Below are positions 3,492 to 29,652 of a DNA stretch of 32,000 bases, in pieces. Source of the stretch: Flavobacterium alvei (GTDB taxonomy: Bacteria > Bacteroidota > Bacteroidia > Flavobacteriales > Flavobacteriaceae); the NCBI RefSeq assembly GCF_002920895.1, contig NZ_PQVG01000003.1, positions 259,879 to 291,878 of the forward strand, in the 5' to 3' direction. Made by a program: the position numbers and the translations under genes. The notes under the pieces were generated by a model that saw nothing but the letters and a program-made list of their open reading frames with translations, was not told the origin of the DNA and searched no databases. Every line of letters begins with the position of its first letter. Position 1 is the first letter of the stretch.

Positions 3492-3836
3492 ATGAAGCTA
3501 ATTCTTAGGATTTTTATCACAGCGGTTTTAGTGGTGCTTATTGCAGGAGCAATGACATCAGTAGATGTTGACAGTTTTACTACAGCTGTAATTGTTGCGG
3601 CCGTGTTGGGATTGCTTAATATTTTTATCAAACCTATTTTAGTAATTTTGTCATTGCCAGCTACAATACTAACATTTGGTTTGTTTTTATTTGTAATAAA
3701 TGGGGGTATAATAATGTTATGTTCAAGATTAGTTGACGGATTCAGGATAAATTCATTTTGGACGGCTATTATTTTTAGTATAATTCTTTCCATTTGTGAG
3801 TCTATTGTTTATAAAATTGTAGGCGAAGACAAATAA
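3492..3836 (+). CDS. Small 4-TM membrane protein, phage-holin-4/DUF360-like
   Basis: 114-aa ORF with four hydrophobic helices. The KPILVILSLPATILTFGLFLFVINGGIIML pattern resembles the holin superfamily IV / YvlD family, from memory. Confidence 0.6.
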   Translation: MKLILRIFITAVLVVLIAGAMTSVDVDSFTTAVIVAAVLGLLNIFIKPILVILSLPATILTFGLFLFVINGGIIMLCSRLVDGFRINSFWTAIIFSIILSICESIVYKIVGEDK

Positions 3837-6257: not shown

Positions 6258-7490
6258 ATGGCAAAACCAAAATTAGAATGTTCATTCTGTGGAAGAAAAA
6301 AACCGGAAACCAATTTATTGATTGCCGGAATCGATGCGCACATTTGTGATAAATGTATCGAACAAGCCCACGGAATTGTAGTAGAAGAATTAAAATCAAG
6401 TAGCAAAAATCATTTGCCTACGGACTTGGTTTTAAGAAAACCAAAAGAAATCAGGGCTTTTCTGGATCAATATGTTATTGGTCAAGATCAAACCAAAAAA
6501 GTAATGGCGGTGGCGGTTTACAATCACTACAAACGTTTGATGCAACAAGAATTGCACGACGAAGTGGAGATTGAAAAAAGTAATATCATAATGGTGGGCC
6601 AAACCGGAACAGGGAAAACATTGGTGGCCAAAACCATTGCCAAAATGCTCGATGTTCCCTTGGCAATTGTTGATGCGACCGTATTGACGGAAGCTGGTTA
6701 TGTGGGAGAAGATGTCGAAAGTATTTTGACACGACTTTTGCAAGCCGCCGATTATGACGTGACCAAAGCCGAAAGAGGCATCGTTTTCATTGACGAAATT
6801 GACAAGATTGCCCGCAAAAGCGACAATCCATCCATCACTCGAGATGTTTCGGGCGAAGGCGTGCAACAAGCTTTGTTGAAATTATTAGAAGGAACGGTTG
6901 TCAATGTGCCACCAAAAGGAGGACGTAAACACCCAGACCAAAAATTTGTTGAGGTGAATACTCAAAATATTTTGTTTATTGCTGGTGGTGCTTTTGATGG
7001 TGTGGAAAGAATTATTTCCAAAAGACTAAACCGTCAAGCTGTTGGTTATTCAACTTCCAAAAATGTGGACAATATCGACAAAGATAATTTGTTGCAATAC
7101 ATCATCCCGAAAGACATCAAGGACTTTGGATTAATTCCTGAAATCATTGGTCGTTTGCCGGTGTTGACGCATATGGATCCTTTGGATAGGGAAACCTTGA
7201 GAGCGATTTTGACACAACCCAAAAATGCGTTAATCAAACAATATCAAAAGTTATTTTTGATGGATGAGGTGGAATTCAGCATCACGGACGAAGCTTTGGA
7301 TTTTATTGTGGACAAAGCTTTGGAGTACAAACTCGGAGCCCGTGGATTGCGTTCGTTGTGCGAAGCCATCCTGACCGATGCGATGTATGAATTGCCAAGT
7401 TCTGATGATAAAACATTGGAAATCGACGTGGATTACGCCAAAGAAACTTTGAATAGAAATTTATTGAAACGATTGGAAATCGCTTCGTAA
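6258..7490 (+). CDS. clpX: ATP-dependent Clp protease ATP-binding subunit ClpX
   Basis: 410-aa ORF with an N-terminal C4 zinc ribbon (CSFCGR...CDKC), Walker A (GQTGTGKT) and Walker B (IVFIDEIDK). Confidence 0.95.
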
Positions 7491-7520
7491 CTCAATTTCA
7501 AGCTCAATAAAAAGTAAAAT

Positions 7521-7553
7521 AAAGCTCAAAAACGTATGTTTTTGAGCTTTATT
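7521..7553. terminator. Bidirectional terminator between the convergent clpX and island genes
   Basis: 13-bp perfect stem (aaagctcaaaaac / gtttttgagcttt) with a 4-nt loop. Both arms are A/T-rich. Confidence 0.65.
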
Positions 7554-7577
7554 CGTTAATGATGGGAGCTTGATAAA

Positions 7578-8702
7578 TTAAAATCTATTCTTAATAATAT
7601 AAAAAGGAATTTCGATTCCAATTTTTGCCAAAGCTTCTCTTTGTTTTAGATGGTAATTTAAATTGGATAAATCATCTTCAAAGCTATCGTCATTATATTT
7701 TTCCCTATATTCATTATCGTTATAAACGCAATATTTTTTGAGCAACTCCTCGTTTTTGGGGCTGTAGTTATTATAAAAATGATAGGCTTCCATACATTCT
7801 TGTCCGTGAAATAGAATTATGGATTTATTATCAAAATTAAAATTTACGAATCCTTTATCAATATTGGTGCTGTATTTAAAATCATAGGGAGTTTGGTCAA
7901 AAATGGGGTAATACTTTACAATCCAATCAATATAATGTTGCTCTGTTTGGAATGTTTTATATTGTACATTAGCCAGTTGGATGAGCTTTAAGTTTGTATT
8001 GAAATAGTCTTTTCTTCTTTTTAAATTGTAATATAAATGAGTAAAAGGAGTCCATTTCATTGTGGGTTCAAAAAAATCATACTCGCCAATTCGTTCAGAC
8101 AAAACAGCATATTTATCAACCCAATAACATAATTGTTCAAAGTCTAACAACTGTGGAGGATTAGTGCATATTTCAGCAAAGGCTTTCTCGGCAGCATTTA
8201 CTTTATATAGATATTCAGGTGTTTTTACAAAAGAGGTAAGTTCATCCTCATCAAACTCCAGACTAGCCTTGCACTCCAGGTATTCAATAGTTTCGGTAGT
8301 CGCGAAACGGGAACAATCATAAATATTGCTGATGTTTTCATCTACCAATTCAAAAATAAAATCAAAATAATTATGAGAATGATTGCCCACAAACCGATAT
8401 CCTGTTTTTCCACAATTATCGCAGTGGCTAATCTCGGCACCACATTTTCCTTGATACGCTATATAATAGTCATCACCTATTTTTTTATGCGCTAGGTATA
8501 ATTCTTCTAACTTCTCCAAAAAAACTTCCTTGGTGGCATCTTGATAGGTTTTAGCATCATCCAAAAGGACTTCCAAAGCCGCAATATTCATTTCGGTAAA
8601 GGCTTTTATTATATGTTCCGCCTTTGTTGGTTCTTGTGCAGCATCGCCCTGATTGTCTAATGCAGCGAGTTGTTCGAGTAGTTTTTGTTTTTCAGGAGTC
8701 AT
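7578..8702 (-). CDS. Hypothetical protein, island paralog B: shared Cys-rich module at the N-terminus plus a unique C-terminal extension of about 220 aa
   Basis: 374-aa ORF with an ATG start. Residues 1-150 align by eye with residues 113-271 of the ORF at 8797-9612 (EKQKLxEQL, IxKAxxEM, GxC...C...GYxFxGN, IFE, C..F, DEEL). Confidence 0.75.
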   Translation of the reverse strand: MTPEKQKLLEQLAALDNQGDAAQEPTKAEHIIKAFTEMNIAALEVLLDDAKTYQDATKEVFLEKLEELYLAHKKIGDDYYIAYQGKCGAEISHCDNCGKTGYRFVGNHSHNYFDFIFELVDENISNIYDCSRFATTETIEYLECKASLEFDEDELTSFVKTPEYLYKVNAAEKAFAEICTNPPQLLDFEQLCYWVDKYAVLSERIGEYDFFEPTMKWTPFTHLYYNLKRRKDYFNTNLKLIQLANVQYKTFQTEQHYIDWIVKYYPIFDQTPYDFKYSTNIDKGFVNFNFDNKSIILFHGQECMEAYHFYNNYSPKNEELLKKYCVYNDNEYREKYNDDSFEDDLSNLNYHLKQREALAKIGIEIPFYIIKNRF

Positions 8703-8714
8703 AATGGTTTTGTT

Positions 8715-8782
8715 TTATTTCCAACCCAAAGTTTTAATTATTTGGTTTCGGTAGGTGGTGGCCATTTGTTTTGGGGTGTTGC
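8715..8782 (-). pseudogene. 3'-terminal relic (about 21 codons plus stop) of a second ChaC/GGCT-like gene
   Basis: By hand alignment, 8721-8782 matches 9634-9695 (the 3' end of the intact 188-aa gene) at 55 of 62 positions. The relic translates as NTPKQMATTYRNQIIKTLGWK*, against NTPKQIATTYRKQIIEVLGWD* in the intact gene. No upstream coding part remains. Confidence 0.8.
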
Positions 8783-8796
8783 TGTTTTTTTCTAAA

Positions 8797-9612
8797 TTAG
8801 AAAGGCAAATCATCTAGTTCTTCATCTGTAAAATTGTAGGAGTCTAATTTTTTTTCTCGAGCTTTATTGATGAATATGTCATCCACTTTAAAACTATTGC
8901 ATTTACATATATCTGTACAAACTCCATTTTCTTGTTCAAAAATAATATTGCAATAGGAATTGGAATTGTTACCTATAAATGTATAACCACTAGTACCTAT
9001 ATTACAATCATAAGCATTACAACTTCCACTATGGGCTATTAATTGAGTGTCGTTGTTTTCTTTGAATTCGTTAAATTTTGACTTAATATATTTTAAAAAT
9101 TCTTCTCTTTTATACTTACTTAAATAATTTTCAGTCAAGATTTCAAGTTGTTCCAGATCCATTTCTGAAATGGCTTTTACAATAAGTTTATTTCGGCTAG
9201 AATCACTTTTGATAAAAGTAACATCGCCCATTTCCAAGAGTTGTTCAATGAGTTTCTGTTTCTCTTCTGACAATGCTGCAAATAATTGACTGTCAATATT
9301 TGTTTCAGAAATAGTTTCTATCTCTTCTACGCTTTCAGGTTTATTACCTACATTAGAAACCATCATAGTTGCTATTTCTTTCATACGTTTGTCTAGATTG
9401 GCTATGGTTTGTTCGGCGTGTTCTATACCAAATTGTGGTGCCAAGTCGTGTGCAAATGCTAAAGTAACCCATAATTCACAAACCGAATCTCCTTCTGTTT
9501 TGCATTCGCATCCTATATTGTCTTCAAGTTTAAAATTAACATCCTCTAAGCTACCGTTTTCCGATAATACCCGAACAACTTCATTGTAATGTGTACAGTT
9601 TTTGTAGTTCAT
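8797..9612 (-). CDS. Hypothetical protein, island paralog A: unique Cys-containing N-terminal domain of about 112 aa, the shared Cys-rich module, and an acidic DDLPF C-terminus
   Basis: 271-aa ORF with an ATG start 15 nt downstream of the preceding gene's stop. It ends ...YNFTDEELDDLPF. Confidence 0.75.
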   Translation of the reverse strand: MNYKNCTHYNEVVRVLSENGSLEDVNFKLEDNIGCECKTEGDSVCELWVTLAFAHDLAPQFGIEHAEQTIANLDKRMKEIATMMVSNVGNKPESVEEIETISETNIDSQLFAALSEEKQKLIEQLLEMGDVTFIKSDSSRNKLIVKAISEMDLEQLEILTENYLSKYKREEFLKYIKSKFNEFKENNDTQLIAHSGSCNAYDCNIGTSGYTFIGNNSNSYCNIIFEQENGVCTDICKCNSFKVDDIFINKAREKKLDSYNFTDEELDDLPF

Positions 9613-9627
9613 AATTCGTTTTTTTTT

Positions 9628-10194
9628 TTAATCCCAACCCAAAACTTCAATTATTTGTTTTCGGTAGGTAGTGGCTATTTGTTTTGGAGTGTTGCGAATG
9701 TATTCTTCGGCTAAAGCACTTTCAGCACCTTTTAAATTTTGTAGATATTCGATTCTATCGTTTGGGTCAATTGTTTTGATAACTACTTTTTCTTCATTTC
9801 TTATTTCCCAATTTTCAGGAAGATTTGTCCAAATTACGGCATCAAAATCAGTGGTTTGAATCCAGTTTTTAATACTTTCTTTAAACAGAAAATCTATTGG
9901 AGAAAATTCATCTTTAGTTTTATCATAATATCCAATGTTTTCTTTCACAGTTCCTTCACGTTTTTTAAGATTTAATACAGCCAAATCAAGGTTGTCAAAA
10001 CTAGAAACAGCATACAATGTTTGAACTTCTGTGCCATTTGGTGTAATGACCAATGTTAATCTTCCATCTTTAGAAATTCTAGCAAACTCAATGGGTAAAA
10101 CGGGGCCGTTTTCTTTCCAACCTATGTTTGTATCAAATTTTAAATCTTTGGGTTGCCAAATTAAGGAACCCCAACCGAGGACTGCTATTTTCAT
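9628..10194 (-). CDS. ChaC / gamma-glutamylcyclotransferase-like protein
   Basis: 188-aa ORF. The N-terminus KIAVLGWGSLIWQP resembles the ChaC motif FGYGSLIWxP. Further on, YAVS...LAVLNLKKREGTVKENIGYYDKTKDEFSP resembles the ChaC block around the catalytic Glu (Y.V...L.YL..RE...GGYD....F.P). The motif comparison is from memory; no search was run. Confidence 0.55.
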   Translation of the reverse strand: MKIAVLGWGSLIWQPKDLKFDTNIGWKENGPVLPIEFARISKDGRLTLVITPNGTEVQTLYAVSSFDNLDLAVLNLKKREGTVKENIGYYDKTKDEFSPIDFLFKESIKNWIQTTDFDAVIWTNLPENWEIRNEEKVVIKTIDPNDRIEYLQNLKGAESALAEEYIRNTPKQIATTYRKQIIEVLGWD

Positions 10195-10197
10195 AAT

Positions 10198-10866
10198 TTA
10201 TGATTTATCGCAGATATGCTTCATTTTGGCTTTGAAATTATCTCTTAATTCAGTGTTTTTTTCTAAATTTTCAAATGAATTGCCTGTATTTATTGCCTGC
10301 GCAATATTTTTATATGAAGTGCCTATTTGTATTGCCAACTTATATTTTGCAATTATATTTTCTAGTTCTTTTTGGAAATTTTCTCTAAAAATTATTTTTT
10401 CGCCATTAAAAACAAGCTTAGTTTGTTCAGTGTCAGAAAGAATTGTCCAACCGTTTTTAGTTTGTGTTTCGTGTAAACAAGCACATCTTACATTTATATA
10501 AAAATCGTAAGCTTTTGATTCCATTATCTTAAATGCATTATGATTTTTAAAAAATGACATAAAAACGTTTTTATTTCCTTTAAAACTATCTCCATCCATT
10601 TTAATATAGTGTGGATGTTCGTATTTCCAACCATTTATAAAACTTTCAATAGTTTCAATTAAAGAGCATTGCAAATTAACAACAGCAAATCCCTCACCGT
10701 TATTTATTTTTAGATCTAAAATTGCATTTATTGGATTCAAGTATCTTGTTCTTATCCTTTCTTCAAAAAAATGGAAAGCTAAACCCCATAATTCATCATT
10801 GTTTAGCACTAATTTTTTTTCTAAATCTTCCCAATCTTTAATTGTTAATTCTCCTGCGATTTTCAT
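10198..10866 (-). CDS. Hypothetical protein with an R-x4-H motif (possible HEPN-like)
   Basis: The ORF track extends to 10956 with a TTG start, but I prefer the ATG at 10866 (MKIAGELTIKDW...). It contains FYINVRCACLHETQTKNGW (R-x4-H). Its stop lies 3 nt from the ATG of the next gene. Confidence 0.65.
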   Translation of the reverse strand: MKIAGELTIKDWEDLEKKLVLNNDELWGLAFHFFEERIRTRYLNPINAILDLKINNGEGFAVVNLQCSLIETIESFINGWKYEHPHYIKMDGDSFKGNKNVFMSFFKNHNAFKIMESKAYDFYINVRCACLHETQTKNGWTILSDTEQTKLVFNGEKIIFRENFQKELENIIAKYKLAIQIGTSYKNIAQAINTGNSFENLEKNTELRDNFKAKMKHICDKS

Positions 10867-11035
10867 ATTGTAGTTTTTATAGTTTCTTAATTCAATAAAC
10901 CACTTAAAAGTATTCCGGTCTAATTTTCCATTCGTCAAATTACTTACAAGTAACAATCAAAGACATTGTATCTAATATTATGGATATTAGTCCTAAAAAT
11001 AAATAACGGTGAGGGATTTGGGTGTTTCTAATTTC

Positions 11036-11815
11036 TCACAACTCATTTGTATTTTGAATTTTTTCTTTCTGTTTGTTTCTGTATGATTTCTCTCTATATT
11101 CTTTTGATTTTATTTCTTTAATGATTCTATTTTTTAATTCTTGATAGTTTTCAACAGGTATATAATAAATAAATATTTTCATTCCGTAATCGTGAGTTGA
11201 AACGATATTTCCAATTACACTTTTTTCTTCTTCTTCTTTATTATGTTTAAAACCCATTGAAATTATAGGATCTTTTAATCCATAAAACTTTGTTCCAAAG
11301 AGGATATACTTATTTTGGTCTACAAATATTTTGTAATCATCACAATATTCTAAACCTATTTTTTCTAAATCAATCTTTGAAGGGATTTGGAGTTTATTTA
11401 ATTTGTATTTTTTATTTAAGATTTTAAAAAAATTATTTTTACACTTATCAAACCATATTCCTTTTTTTGAAAACTCTTTGGCGAATTTTTCATATAATAA
11501 ATAATATTTTTCTTGAACACTATATTCTTCAGAATAACTTAACTTAATTGAGTTTTGTCTTTTTTTGATTTCAAATAAAAATTCTTGACCATCAACCAAC
11601 AACGGAAATTTACCATCTTCAAGTTTACCATTTTTATTCAACTCTTTTATTTTAGTAGAAAATTCATTTTCGGACATATTTGGACTTAACCCTAAAAAAA
11701 TTGATTGATATGTTTTTTTTTCTTTTTTTAAAGGAATTTTACTTTTATCTAGTCTGTTATTACAACTTGAGAATAAAAAAATCAAGCAAATTATTTTTAT
11801 TAGTTTGGATTTCAT
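11036..11815 (-). CDS. Lipoprotein of unknown function
   Basis: 259-aa ORF with a signal peptide and lipobox (MKSKLIKIICLIFLFSSC). It has a Lys/Glu-rich C-terminus and no family I recognise. Confidence 0.7.
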   Translation of the reverse strand: MKSKLIKIICLIFLFSSCNNRLDKSKIPLKKEKKTYQSIFLGLSPNMSENEFSTKIKELNKNGKLEDGKFPLLVDGQEFLFEIKKRQNSIKLSYSEEYSVQEKYYLLYEKFAKEFSKKGIWFDKCKNNFFKILNKKYKLNKLQIPSKIDLEKIGLEYCDDYKIFVDQNKYILFGTKFYGLKDPIISMGFKHNKEEEEKSVIGNIVSTHDYGMKIFIYYIPVENYQELKNRIIKEIKSKEYREKSYRNKQKEKIQNTNEL

Positions 11816-11893
11816 AATTTTAAGTATTAAAGTATCATTTTTCAGTATATAACAATTCTATTTTTAATTCAAATAATGAATACTTGTATATAA

Positions 11894-12373
11894 TCACACA
11901 TCAAAAGGGCCAAACTCAATCAAACAATTTTCTCTTTCCTCATAGAGTTCAACGTATACTCCAAATTGATATCCTAATTGTTTCATATATTCATTTATTT
12001 TTAAATAGTCAAAATCTTTTTTTCTGTTTTTCCAAGACATTTTGATTTCAATTTCTGCTATATTTATACTCGTATCTCTTTTATGAATTATAATGTCTGG
12101 GTATACAAAACTATTTCCCTCTCCTGAATCTTCCCAATTCAATATTTTTCCCATTAAATTACCTAAATCATCGTGTTCATATTTTGTCCTCATCCTATTG
12201 TATTCAACGTCAACATCATATTTGTTATCAATAAATAGGTCAATATAATTTCCAAGTTTATTTGAAATTGTTCTTTCACCTATATTATATTCTTTTTTTA
12301 GTATCTTTTTTTCATTTAGATACAATCTGTCCAGTGATAAATGAATTATTTTTTCCAATTCCTCTCTATTCAT
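11894..12373 (-). CDS. Small PD-(D/E)xK-fold nuclease-like protein
   Basis: 159-aa ORF with the motifs in canonical order: a helix Glu (IGERTISNKL), VDVEYNR, the D of VYPDIIIHKR, and the ExK of IAEIEIKMS. Confidence 0.6.
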   Translation of the reverse strand: MNREELEKIIHLSLDRLYLNEKKILKKEYNIGERTISNKLGNYIDLFIDNKYDVDVEYNRMRTKYEHDDLGNLMGKILNWEDSGEGNSFVYPDIIIHKRDTSINIAEIEIKMSWKNRKKDFDYLKINEYMKQLGYQFGVYVELYEERENCLIEFGPFDV

Positions 12374-12713
12374 AATATATTAATTTTATTAAGTAAATTT
12401 TTTCTTTCACAAAAAAAGATTTGAAAAAGAGTAAAAAATAAAATGTATTCAAATATTAGTAAAAAAAAAGGAACTTAACAATACTGGTTATTCTCTCCAC
12501 AAATCTAAACCCTAATTTTCTATTCTCTTTACGGTTTTCCTCAAAGTCCGTTTTTTTATGTTAATTTAGAACGAATATGAGGTTGTGTTATTGTTGGTTA
12601 GTTTAAAATCAAGTTTGAACTTCCATTTTTCTCTTCCCAAAAAAACATCCAATATCCTTTTTTATCTACAATAGATTGTCGATTTTTGCCCATCTTAAAT
12701 TAATACAATACAA

Positions 12714-13949
12714 ATGGCACTAGTTGAGAAAGAGATTATTTTATTGAAAGTTTCAGGTCAGGATAAACCTGGGGTAACAGCTGGGCTGACTTCTATATTA
12801 GCTAATTATGACGCAGTTATTTTGGATATTGGTCAAGCCGATATTCACGATACATTATCTTTAGGTATTTTGTTTGAAATAAAAGCAGGTTCTAGTTCGG
12901 CAGCAGTTTTAAAAGACTTATTGTTCAGAGCGTATGAATTGGGTATTAATGTGAAGTTTATTCCAATATCTATTCCAGATTATGAAATTTGGGTAAAAGG
13001 TCAGCGCAAACAACGCTATATTATCAATGTATTGGGCGAAACTTTGACAGCAGCACAACTAGCGGCTGTGACTCAAATTATGTCAAACCAAAAATTGAAT
13101 ATCGATTCTATCATTCGATTAACGGGTAGGGTTTCGGTTGTAGAAAAAGAAGAATATCCGCGTTCTTGTGTGCAGTTGTCTGTGACTGGAAATATAAATG
13201 ATAAAACGCTAATGACTGCCAGTTTTATGGAAATTTCGAAGGAATTAAATGTAGATATTTCTTTCCAAGAAGACAATATGTACAGAAGAAACCGACGTTT
13301 GGTGTGTTTTGATATGGATTCAACCTTAATTCAAACCGAAGTAATCGATGAATTAGCCGAGTTGGCAGGAGTAGGCGAACAAGTAAGAGCTATTACTGAA
13401 TCAGCCATGAATGGCGAGATTGATTTTAGCGAAAGCTTCAAAAAACGCATGGCTTTGCTTGAAGGGTTGAGCGAAGATGTATTGCAAAATGTTGCTATCA
13501 ATTTACCAATAACCAAAGGAGCCCATCGATTGATGAAAGCCCTGAAATATTATGGATATAAAACGGCAATTCTTTCGGGAGGATTCACCTATTTTGGTGA
13601 TTATTTGCAAAAGGAATTAGGAATTGATTATGTCTATGCCAACCAGTTGGAGATAAAAGACGGTAAACTGACCGGAAAATATTTAGGTGAAATTGTTGAT
13701 GGTCAAAAGAAAGCCGAATATTTGAAAGCCATTGCCGAAAAAGAAGGCATCAATATCAACCAAACCATTGCAGTGGGTGATGGTGCCAATGATTTGCCAA
13801 TGTTGAATTTGGCGGGATTAGGAATTGCTTTTCACGCTAAACCCAAAGTAAAAGAAAGCGCAGCAACATCCATTTCTAGTTTAGGTCTTGATGGAGTTTT
13901 ATATCTATTAGGCTACCACGACCGACATATTGATATGATGCAAGAGTAA
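12714..13949 (+). CDS. serB: Phosphoserine phosphatase with N-terminal ACT-like domains
   Basis: 411-aa ORF with HAD motif I (FDMDSTLI) and motif IV (GDGANDLPM). The N-terminal region of about 190 aa is ACT-like. Confidence 0.9.
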   Translation: MALVEKEIILLKVSGQDKPGVTAGLTSILANYDAVILDIGQADIHDTLSLGILFEIKAGSSSAAVLKDLLFRAYELGINVKFIPISIPDYEIWVKGQRKQRYIINVLGETLTAAQLAAVTQIMSNQKLNIDSIIRLTGRVSVVEKEEYPRSCVQLSVTGNINDKTLMTASFMEISKELNVDISFQEDNMYRRNRRLVCFDMDSTLIQTEVIDELAELAGVGEQVRAITESAMNGEIDFSESFKKRMALLEGLSEDVLQNVAINLPITKGAHRLMKALKYYGYKTAILSGGFTYFGDYLQKELGIDYVYANQLEIKDGKLTGKYLGEIVDGQKKAEYLKAIAEKEGININQTIAVGDGANDLPMLNLAGLGIAFHAKPKVKESAATSISSLGLDGVLYLLGYHDRHIDMMQE

Positions 13950-29274: not shown

Positions 29275-29652
29275 ATGGAAGTTATAGGGAAAATCAAAAT
29301 GATTGATCAAACCAAAGAGGTTGGGTCATCGGGTTTCAAAAAAAGAGATGTTGTTGTTACAACTGACGAACAATATCCACAACATATTTTGGTTCAGTTT
29401 GTTCAAGACAAATGTGATTTGTTGAATAATTATCAAGTAGGCGAAGCTGTAAAAATTGACATTAATTTAAGAGGTCGTGAATGGACTAATCCACAAGGAG
29501 AAACCGTTTATTTTAATACTATTCAAGGATGGAGAATAGCAAAAGCACAAGCAGAAGCTCCTGCGGCTCCAGCGCCACCAATACCTGCCGCTGCAGCATT
29601 TCCGCCAGCAACAAGCATCAACGAAGATGAACCAGACGATTTACCGTTCTAA
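29275..29652 (+). CDS. DUF3127-like small protein with SSB-like architecture
   Basis: 125-aa ORF. A beta-rich core of about 90 aa is followed by a Pro/Ala linker (AEAPAAPAPPIPAAAAFPPA) and an acidic tip, EDEPDDLPF. Confidence 0.7.
   Translation: MEVIGKIKMIDQTKEVGSSGFKKRDVVVTTDEQYPQHILVQFVQDKCDLLNNYQVGEAVKIDINLRGREWTNPQGETVYFNTIQGWRIAKAQAEAPAAPAPPIPAAAAFPPATSINEDEPDDLPF

Follow-up and report, generated by a model that had tools for sequence, protein, structure and literature searches.

PD-lambda-3 is a two-gene abortive-infection system with a PD-(D/E)xK domain, which came from an Escherichia coli pangenome screen and serves as an abortive-infection control in the literature. Among toxin-antitoxin (TA) systems, the PanA or "Panacea" antitoxin domains are one constant partner of many interchangeable toxins, and HEPN/MNT pairs of type VII set the example of a HEPN toxin under the control of an enzyme. 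Ralstonia secretes a ChaC-like effector, RipAY, which depletes glutathione and needs a host factor for its activation. Enzymes with a gamma-glutamyl cyclotransferase (GGCT) fold have as hallmarks a YGSL motif and a catalytic glutamate, which is Glu83 in ChaC2 (PMC7022552). Nothing relevant emerged from a literature search on whether antiphage defence, TA systems or HEPN proteins had been linked to enzymes of the GGCT/ChaC type. Here, we describe an island lying between clpX and serB in a 32-kb window of Flavobacterium alvei DNA (the window being the whole stretch analysed), whose six genes are called G1 to G6 starting from clpX. The analysis centers on the ChaC-like protein G3 and on its neighbor G4, both of which match deposited F. 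alvei proteins with 100% identity.

G3 (188 amino acids, aa; 9628-10194, minus strand) follows G4 (10198-10866, minus strand; 222 aa as deposited, with a maximal open reading frame, ORF, extending to 10956), and the stop codon of G4 stands 3 nucleotides (nt) from the G3 ATG. The two genes appear to be translationally coupled and to form the core of the island. The G3 family is large and unnamed, and from one phylum to another it behaves like the unchanging half of a conflict module. According to our preferred reading, which is given a probability of about 40%, the G4-G3 pair is an abortive-infection or addiction module of the toxin/regulator type, with G4 as effector and G3 as constant regulator. 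G4 would be a probable HEPN-like nuclease acting through R127 and H132, and G3 a catalytically competent ChaC-like enzyme which, as the constant partner, holds the effector back or switches it. G3 would bind, and probably turn over, a small molecule or peptide of gamma-glutamyl type, the level of which would shift upon infection or loss of the element. In this it would resemble enzymatic antitoxins, or sensor domains able to break down what they bind. The same G3 domain would serve many interchangeable effectors in other genomes. Finally, G2 and G1 would be accessory adaptors, and the DDLPF tail of G2 may dock onto proteins that bind the tip of single-stranded DNA-binding protein (SSB).

All six proteins were scanned against Pfam, NCBIfam, PADLOC and PHROG, with nothing above chance in Pfam, NCBIfam and PHROG, and searched against the PDB by sequence and profile. 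For G3, the PDB search was empty and no model of these four collections covers the family, which amounts to 1,516 matches in a 90%-clustered set and to 1,758 clusters at 50% identity (E <= 1e-3). The Pfam ChaC model was touched by just 3 of 117 family members, at E ~0.003 and below threshold; judged by its sequence, G3 lies outside the curated ChaC family. An AlphaFold model computed from an alignment of 117 diverse sequences reached a predicted local distance difference test (pLDDT) score of 97.9 and a predicted template modeling (pTM) score of 0.92, compared with a pLDDT of only 53 from a shallow 20-sequence alignment. The top solved match of this model in the PDB (Foldseek) was human ChaC2 (6ky1_A; E 2.2e-3, probability 0.99, template modeling, TM, scores of 0.51/0.53), and GGACT and AIG2-like structures ranked below it. 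G3 is predicted from this model to have a ChaC-like gamma-glutamyl-cyclotransferase fold. Its segment VLGWGSLIW aligns with VFGYGSLIW of ChaC2, W8-G9-S10-L11 corresponding to Y6-G7-S8-L9 with a Trp in place of the motif Tyr, and G9, S10, L11 and E80 are invariant in the 117 sequences. E80 stands at the end of helix 69-80, ahead of a Tyr-bearing strand (87-91), and the same order of elements, as distinct from a superposition of residues, is found around Glu83 of ChaC2. The G3 family looks catalytically intact, and G3 was taken as an active enzyme because ChaC2 is its top match and because the invariant G9, S10, L11 and E80 are kept in all fusions.

The partners of G3 were surveyed in 98 further loci, consisting of 80 metagenomic and 18 IMG/VR viral contigs, 69 of which were non-redundant with enough upstream sequence to be counted. 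A same-strand ORF ends no more than 30 nt upstream of G3 in 36 of the 69, and these 36 partners belong to 22 unrelated clusters. The commonest were G4-like proteins and membrane proteins of ~150 aa; the others included Mrr_cat, FRG, nSTAND3 NTPase, SNF2+NOV_C, DEAD+MZB+REase, PIF1+TPR helicases, PrimPol+RNase_T, ClpP and DUF6441 proteins. Even among close relatives, in which G3 is 84-89% identical, the gene upstream of G3 is swapped, so that some have G4 at this place while others have a membrane protein of 149 aa. Fusions of G3 were found with HNH_5, GIY-YIG, HEPN_AbiV, NUDIX, HIT-like, transmembrane, zinc-ribbon, DUF429-like and G4-like domains, and with a papain-like protease (a weak match), and the WGSL/RE residues are retained in every fusion protein. 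G3 is hence the constant member of the pair or fusion, the other member being highly interchangeable and often a classical effector domain.

The fusions with nuclease, HEPN and membrane domains favor G3 as a regulator. The STAND and helicase partners favor instead the main alternative, in which G3 is itself the effector: a licensed ChaC-like enzyme would destroy an essential gamma-glutamyl compound, such as glutathione, gamma-Glu-Cys, a folyl-polyglutamate or a cell-wall precursor containing gamma-D-Glu, and arrest the cell, the upstream proteins being sensors, licensers or independent defence genes. We consider this scenario unlikely, although it accounts for catalytic residues that are invariant in all contexts, for sensor-type partners (nSTAND3 NTPase; SNF2, DEAD and PIF1 helicases with TPR) and for the fact that ChaC enzymes deplete glutathione (PMC7022552). 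A second effector would indeed be redundant in such a system, whereas many partners and fusions of G3 are already classical effectors (HNH, GIY-YIG, HEPN_AbiV, Mrr, membrane, NUDIX).

The wider neighborhoods of G3 contain HmaA-, DrmD- and BrxH-like helicases, GmrSD, AIPR, DUF4420 and TrwC relaxase genes, together with housekeeping genes, and the neighbors of G3, G4 and G1 homologues include NACHT, YobI, UvrD, SIR2, CHAT, PLD, PIF1, DUF4238 and methylase genes. The family is also present on plasmids of Proteobacteria. On Rhizobium pRL10, for example, G3 stands in a series formed by DUF4238, G3, a hypothetical gene, an N6-methylase gene and a PLD gene. In the IMG/VR contigs L174 (5345-7699) and L175-L182, G3 is preceded by either a ClpP-type protease or a DUF6441 protein, and a conserved protein of 139-153 aa comes next; one of these G3 homologues is followed by a DNA methyltransferase-like ORF, so called from an SPPY motif only. 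A metabolic explanation was also weighed, namely that G3 is a gamma-glutamyl-recycling or detoxifying enzyme carried as ordinary accessory metabolism or stress cargo beside unrelated hypothetical genes. Such a role would suit a fold typical of metabolic enzymes, the non-defence neighbors of some G3 homologues and the AraC, VOC and SRPBCC stress-type cargo found at the clpX-serB junction in two other Flavobacterium species (see below). It appears improbable given the HNH, GIY-YIG, HEPN_AbiV and membrane fusions, the coupling to 22 unrelated partner families, the homology of G6 to a validated defence protein and the surroundings of the genes, be it as cargo of an integrative and conjugative element beside NACHT, YobI, UvrD and DUF4238 genes or next to GmrSD, AIPR and HmaA-/DrmD-like genes.

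The effector assigned to G4 in the toxin/regulator reading belongs to a family of 298 matches, all annotated as hypothetical. R127 and H132, which make up an R-x4-H motif, are invariant in 22 diverse homologues down to 22% identity, E71 is nearly invariant, and one member of the family (P0212) carries the canonical R-N-x3-H. No HEPN match was obtained for G4 in Pfam, PADLOC or PHROG, nor for its 22 relatives in Pfam, and no PDB profile matched. Alignments of G4 by hhalign with the HEPN_AbiV part of P0328 and with the R-x4-H part of P0363 were both negative. At the level of the motif, G4 is a putative HEPN-like RNase. A functional link between G4 and G3 is indicated because in four bacterial orders the two genes recur side by side, separated by -4 to +19 nt, and because one natural protein (P0426) joins a G4-like domain to G3. 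The pair was seen in Dyadobacter, Polaribacter, Flavobacterium psychrophilum, Chitinophagales and metagenomes. In two of these hosts, the pair is part of a longer operon with all genes on one strand. The operon of F. psychrophilum (L090, 4451-8510) consists of PLDc_2, a 394-aa protein, G4 and a G3 with a zinc-ribbon tail, and that of Polaribacter (L089, 5188-9089) of a 180-aa protein, a 425-aa protein, G4, G3 and an alpha/beta-hydrolase, with overlapping stop and start codons.

In Dyadobacter, the G4-G3 pair travels as cargo on a CTnDOT-like conjugative element, where it adjoins the genes for RteC, two Xis-type HTH_17 proteins and the Exc topoisomerase, and NACHT, YobI-ATPase, UvrD-TPR, HNH and DUF4238 genes are found nearby. 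The window is 84.9% identical in nucleotides to this copy over 1,281 nt (9621-10901, i.e., G3 and G4), which points to a recent transfer of the two genes because such identity is far above expectation between orders. The position of the cassette beside the excision operon of a CTnDOT-like element would also fit a cargo that serves the mobile element itself, through anti-defence or establishment functions: the tip mimic of G2 would disturb the host clients of SSB, and G3 would destroy an immune or stress metabolite of the host. Plasmids and 18 IMG/VR viral contigs do carry G3 homologues, and an OB-fold (oligonucleotide/oligosaccharide-binding fold) SSB-like protein of the same window ends in exactly this DDLPF tail. 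Nevertheless, the genes of F. alvei and its relatives are chromosomal with no integrase, tRNA or transfer genes nearby, Mrr, STAND and HEPN_AbiV partners are typical of defence, and the viral-contig scans returned no relatives of G4, G5 or G6, which leaves the element-serving scenario with little probability.

A trace of recombination was noticed next to G4. The spacer between G5 and G4 contains on the plus strand a 55-nt inverted fragment of G4 (10966-11020), corresponding to codons ~72-90, which was found both as repeat I1, 80% complementary to 10686-10740, and by tblastn. It also resembles positions 7522-7561 of L081, the Dyadobacter G4 copy, and is probably the scar of an inversion or recombination event.

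Downstream of G3, with 15 nt between the G3 stop and the next ATG, lies G2 (8797-9612, minus strand; 271 aa), followed by G1 (7578-8702, minus strand; 374 aa). Residues 1-133 of G1 and 114-241 of G2 share 32% identity (E 6e-17), and the two proteins are paralogues. Their common module bears three conserved cysteines (C87, C94 and C130 in G1) and a GY.FVGN.S motif. In G1, it makes up an N-terminal helical and Cys-rich part of ~130 aa, followed by a C-terminal domain of ~240 aa without known function; in G2, it comes after a separate N-terminal part of 113 aa and before an acidic tail that ends in DDLPF. Neither protein had a match in Pfam, NCBIfam, PADLOC, PHROG or the PDB. The module family is small (63 matches, some fused to TPR repeats), and, where organism names are given, its hosts are Flavobacterium, Dyadobacter and Mariniphaga. 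Full-length G2 homologues, 90-92% identical, are present in L200 and L201, with G1 homologues downstream of them. A 163-aa homologue sits after G3 in L085-88 and ends in ...ADLDDLPF, compared with ...EELDDLPF in G2. In the absence of G3, G1 relatives were seen beside SIR2, RadC or CHAT-TPR genes, and also within a further element of the RteC/integrase kind.

The same tip was noticed in a 125-aa ORF of the window (29275-29652, plus strand) of OB-fold/SSB-like, DUF3127-type appearance, which ends in ...EDEPDDLPF, and similar ORFs with a DDLPF end occur in two Flavobacteriales loci (L059 and L065). DDLPF may be the local SSB-type tip, mimicked by G2, because these OB-fold-like ORFs share the ending. 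Another family of small proteins, whose genes come immediately after G3, has members ending in D-I-I-P-F (L094, 6586-6927) or D-T-M-P-F (L107, 1308-1691). Taken together, the DDLPF, D-I-I-P-F and D-T-M-P-F ends suggest that in Bacteroidota an SSB-tip-like "...PF" end is common to the products of several unrelated genes that lie downstream of G3.

Between G2 and G1, a relic of a second G3-type gene was found (8708-8793, minus strand), immediately adjoining both the G2 stop codon and the G1 start codon. It comprises the last ~26 codons of the gene and a 12-nt spacer. Positions 8721-8780 (minus strand) encode NTPKQMATTYRNQIIKTLGW, which is 80% identical to G3 residues 168-187 (tblastn, E 1.7e-6). 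At the nucleotide level, 8708-8793 forms with 9621-9706 a direct repeat (D1) that is 83% identical over 86 nt, and this stretch is 87-88% identical to the junctions between G3 and the downstream gene in L081 and L085. The passage from G3 to a gene for a Cys-rich module is thus a second conserved junction, with a spacer of 12-15 nt in the window, in L085 and at the stump upstream of G1. G2 and G1 would each once have been preceded by a G3 of their own. The same stump precedes G1 homologues in three other loci (L200-L202), with a KilA-N gene between the stump and G1; stumps of ~20-28 codons, ahead of genes of G2 type or of KilA-N/G1 type, were located at 6090-6149 in L200, at 3596-3679 and 6624-6683 in L201 and at 1081-1140 in L202. 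In L200, the order is a 149-aa membrane protein, G3 (89% identity), G2 (92%), the stump, KilA-N and G1 (82%), and the cassette adjoins a PIF1 helicase and an AAA_15/DUF3696 ATPase. Such conservation of the stump suggests either that the 3' end of G3 is useful to the downstream gene, as a promoter or ribosome-binding site, or that it is a breakpoint of cassette recombination.

Several observations weigh against the toxin/regulator reading of G4-G3. The match of G3 with ChaC2 is of intermediate quality (TM ~0.5, E 2e-3), and their sequence alignment is limited to the YGSLIW motif. An invariant catalytic glutamate is not expected of an antitoxin that simply binds its toxin, and large sensor-type partners, i.e., STAND NTPases and helicases, fit G3 as effector rather than as regulator. 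On the side of the effector, G4 matches no HEPN profile or solved structure. As for the companions, L201 keeps G2 and G1 with G3 stumps only, which indicates that they have no strict need for G3. Regarding the genomic context, housekeeping Pfam families occur among the neighbors of G3, a copy on a Pantoea megaplasmid lies in unremarkable surroundings, and homologues are found in viral contigs as well (the 18 of IMG/VR).

The surroundings of the F. alvei genes were then compared among species. None of the six genes was found beside clpX in 80 clpX loci fetched from other species. In F. weaverense (L002), clpX and serB are 165 bp apart, which represents an empty site, and in two other Flavobacterium species (L003 and L004) the junction holds ~4.8 kb of unrelated cargo, comprising a regulator of the AraC/GlxA type and several consecutive VOC (glyoxalase-like) and SRPBCC/AHSA1-like genes (L003, 11355-16018; L004, 11354-15744). 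Three distinct versions of the clpX-serB junction bear G3, those of the window, L085-88 and L094. The G3 proteins of the latter two are 84-87% identical to that of the window and their companions differ. L085-88 contain in this order a helix-turn-helix protein, a lipoprotein, a 919-aa protein, a 183-aa membrane protein, a 149-aa membrane protein, G3 and the 163-aa G2-like protein ending in DDLPF. L094 contains a 701-aa P-loop protein matching the PADLOC candidates PDC-S68 and PDC-M16A, a 153-aa membrane protein, G3, a 113-aa protein ending in DIIPF and a 183-aa membrane protein. The 919-aa protein (L085, 3719-6478, plus strand) has a signal or membrane N-terminus and a C-terminal RecB/Cas4-like motif (GTIDMLY...IFDWKRS), and it matched nothing in PADLOC. 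The 183-aa membrane protein is conserved beside G3 in L081 (8726-9277, the Dyadobacter cassette), L085 (6592-7143), L094 (7365-7916), L095 and L096. Relics of the 183-aa and 149-aa membrane proteins of these sister islands were searched for in the window and none was found.

These comparisons show that the clpX-serB junction is a variable integration hotspot and that the island is accessory, a mosaic that was acquired horizontally and recombines. The comparison across Flavobacterium had been suggested in the earlier note made from the sequence of this DNA; the content of the junction varies, and a core locus of six syntenic, invariant genes in the relatives is clearly not what was observed.

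Within the window, the island is the 5.2-kb stretch between clpX (6258-7490, plus strand), at its left, and serB (12714-13949, plus strand), at its right. Beyond G4, it continues with G5 (11036-11815; 259 aa) and G6 (11894-12373; 159 aa), and all six ORFs are on the minus strand. Its GC content is 0.286, against 0.342 +/- 0.006 (minimum 0.332) in windows of equal size elsewhere in the 32 kb, and it is uneven, with 0.312 for the G1-G4 part, 0.239 for the G5-G6 part and 0.223 for G5 alone. Between the convergent ends of clpX and G1, a perfect inverted repeat of 16-17 bp (I5; 7517-7554) forms the sole terminator-like site in 7400-12800; this hairpin, which is also kept at the clpX end in L085 and L094, is likely a bidirectional terminator and the left edge of the island. 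A scan of the island with the sigma-70 consensus gave hits not above those of shuffled sequences, and the Bacteroidetes-type promoter motif had no site inside it. Because these promoter scans were uninformative, the operon structure was deduced from gene spacing alone. The repeat search revealed no convincing direct repeats flanking the island. No tRNA gene is present near it, and no integrase was identified among the other ORFs of the window, which were listed without annotation.

G6 is the only protein of the island matching a component of a described defence system. It matched the PADLOC model PD-Lambda-3_A at E 6.6e-17 (profile positions 18-150 of 159, nearly the full length), and the A protein of an E. 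coli IncHI1B plasmid with 28% identity and E 7e-16, the E..D..ExK residues being conserved. Homologues with 28-36% identity were detected by tblastn on conjugative plasmids of enterobacteria and Photobacterium. Searches of G6 gave nothing in the PDB by sequence or profile and only chance-level matches in Pfam, NCBIfam and PHROG. As a reference, the IncHI1B pair matched the A model at 2.3e-100 and the B model at 1.2e-179, its B protein also matching Aga_HEPN, and the G6 homologue of this plasmid adjoins BREX and then a TIGR02391 protein. The bona fide PD-lambda-3 pair, on the E. coli plasmid p22Q34-1 (L192, 5296-6729), comes straight after a BREX locus (BrxL), and behind it stands a 477-aa "restriction endonuclease" without a PADLOC model. 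None of the six island proteins matched PD-Lambda-3_B or TIGR02391. Because the B-type protein is missing among the six, G6 does not amount to a PD-lambda-3 system and appears to be a diverged A-type protein devoid of its partner. G4 was examined as a diverged B protein for G6 and rejected, as it has no match to the B model and pairs with G3 without G6 everywhere else. G5, which is rich in lysine and starts with the signal sequence MKSKLIKIICLIFLFSSC containing Cys18, is probably a lipoprotein, as far as its N-terminal signal sequence alone can tell, and no relatives were found in Pfam, NCBIfam, PADLOC, PHROG, the PDB, plasmids or viral contigs.

The earlier note had seen in these genes one conflict locus of six, a defence or toxin/immunity system. 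The features on which it relied were recovered: the six minus-strand ORFs and their coordinates, the exact 3-nt and 15-nt gaps, a composition richer in AT than the flanks, the complete PD-(D/E)xK signature of the 159-aa protein, the R-x4-H motif of G4, the two diverged paralogues with a common Cys-rich module, one of them with an SSB-tail-like DDLPF end, and the relic of a second ChaC-like gene. Its 188-aa ChaC/GGCT-like enzyme is backed by both the predicted fold and the active-site motif. The conflict-like character of the content also stands, with an accessory and variable company, a match of G6 to a named defence component, and homologues of G3, G4 and G1 in the cargo of conjugative elements. 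What does not hold is the single co-oriented system of six genes, which we regard as most improbable. In its favor, the six genes all point the same way and are crowded into the interval from a single terminator hairpin to serB. The set was found in no other locus searched, however, and G5 and G6 accompany other island genes in 0 of the 98 sampled G3 loci and in no context locus of G3, G4 or G1. The GC content of G5-G6 is unlike that of G1-G4, and a 169-nt spacer with the inverted G4 scar divides the two parts. In addition, the sub-blocks recombine separately: co-occurrence, which the earlier note had proposed to check, was observed for G4-G3 and for G2-G1, the latter pair recurring without an intact G3 in L201, and not for the full set of six. 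The island is therefore made of at least three independent units, namely the lone G6, the orphan lipoprotein G5, and the core G4-G3 with G2, the stump and G1. Because of the stumps, of the inverted G4 fragment and of these independently recurring sub-blocks, it is best described as a recombination mosaic with no fixed system.

By itself, the island is an ordinary defence-island-like hotspot containing a degenerate known component, and its unusual part is the G3 family. It is possible, if doubtful, that this family provides the catalytic center for a whole class of conflict modules, large and so far unrecognised, in which a GGCT-type reaction on a small-molecule or peptide cue would switch interchangeable effectors, and whose Flavobacterium versions would also recruit SSB-client proteins through G2. 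The effectors tentatively placed in this class are the G4-type R-x4-H, HNH, GIY-YIG, HEPN-AbiV and NUDIX proteins and membrane toxins. If true, this would bring a new chemistry to bacterial immune or addiction control. If the G3 family does control an effector of conflict modules, or is itself one, a new enzyme fold and gamma-glutamyl cyclisation chemistry would be added to bacterial immunity and TA systems, and a function would be given to a family of ~1,750 clusters that no domain or defence database names. G4-G3 would then provide a simple two-gene model system, and the clpX-serB junction is a natural "swap site" where one G3 is found with different partners, which makes it useful for the study of partner specificity.

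Compared with the known systems, G6 resembles PD-lambda-3 in matching component A over nearly its full length with the PD-(D/E)xK residues kept. It differs by an identity of only 28%, by the absence of B, a 267-aa protein of TIGR02391/HEPN type, and by having an unrelated lipoprotein as neighbor. The tail of G2 is similar to the SSB C-terminal tip, an acidic docking peptide of the form D-[DIL]-[IL]-P-F, but unlike SSB, G2 has no OB fold, so that the tail would be a mimic. With HEPN RNases (Rx4-6H), G4 shares an invariant R-x4-H and the polar residue that follows, and in P0328 a Pfam-verified HEPN_AbiV domain is fused to G3 in the place that G4 has in the two-gene loci; unlike them, it fits no HEPN profile of Pfam or PADLOC and no solved structure. 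G3 shares with the ChaC/GGCT enzymes (human ChaC2, 6ky1/6k95; GGACT; AIG2-like) the predicted fold, the V-x-G-[YW]-G-S-L-I-W motif and an invariant Glu after a helix, and its size is similar to that of ChaC2 (188 vs. 184 aa). In contrast to these enzymes, it stays under every Pfam and NCBIfam threshold for ChaC, GGACT and AIG2, and its helical C-terminal region, in which Y165 and R178 are invariant, is distinct. Its genomic behavior also sets it apart from housekeeping ChaC: in mobile or variable regions, it shares operons with nucleases, HEPN and membrane domains or is fused to them. With respect to TA families with promiscuous partners, the constant partner has here a predicted GGCT fold with a preserved active site, a chemistry that was not found in the TA and defence literature searched, and some partners are large helicase or STAND proteins instead of simple toxins. 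What G3 has in common with these families is that one conserved small protein is coupled or fused to many unrelated domains of toxin type, HEPN-like and small membrane proteins among them, through tight or overlapping genes.

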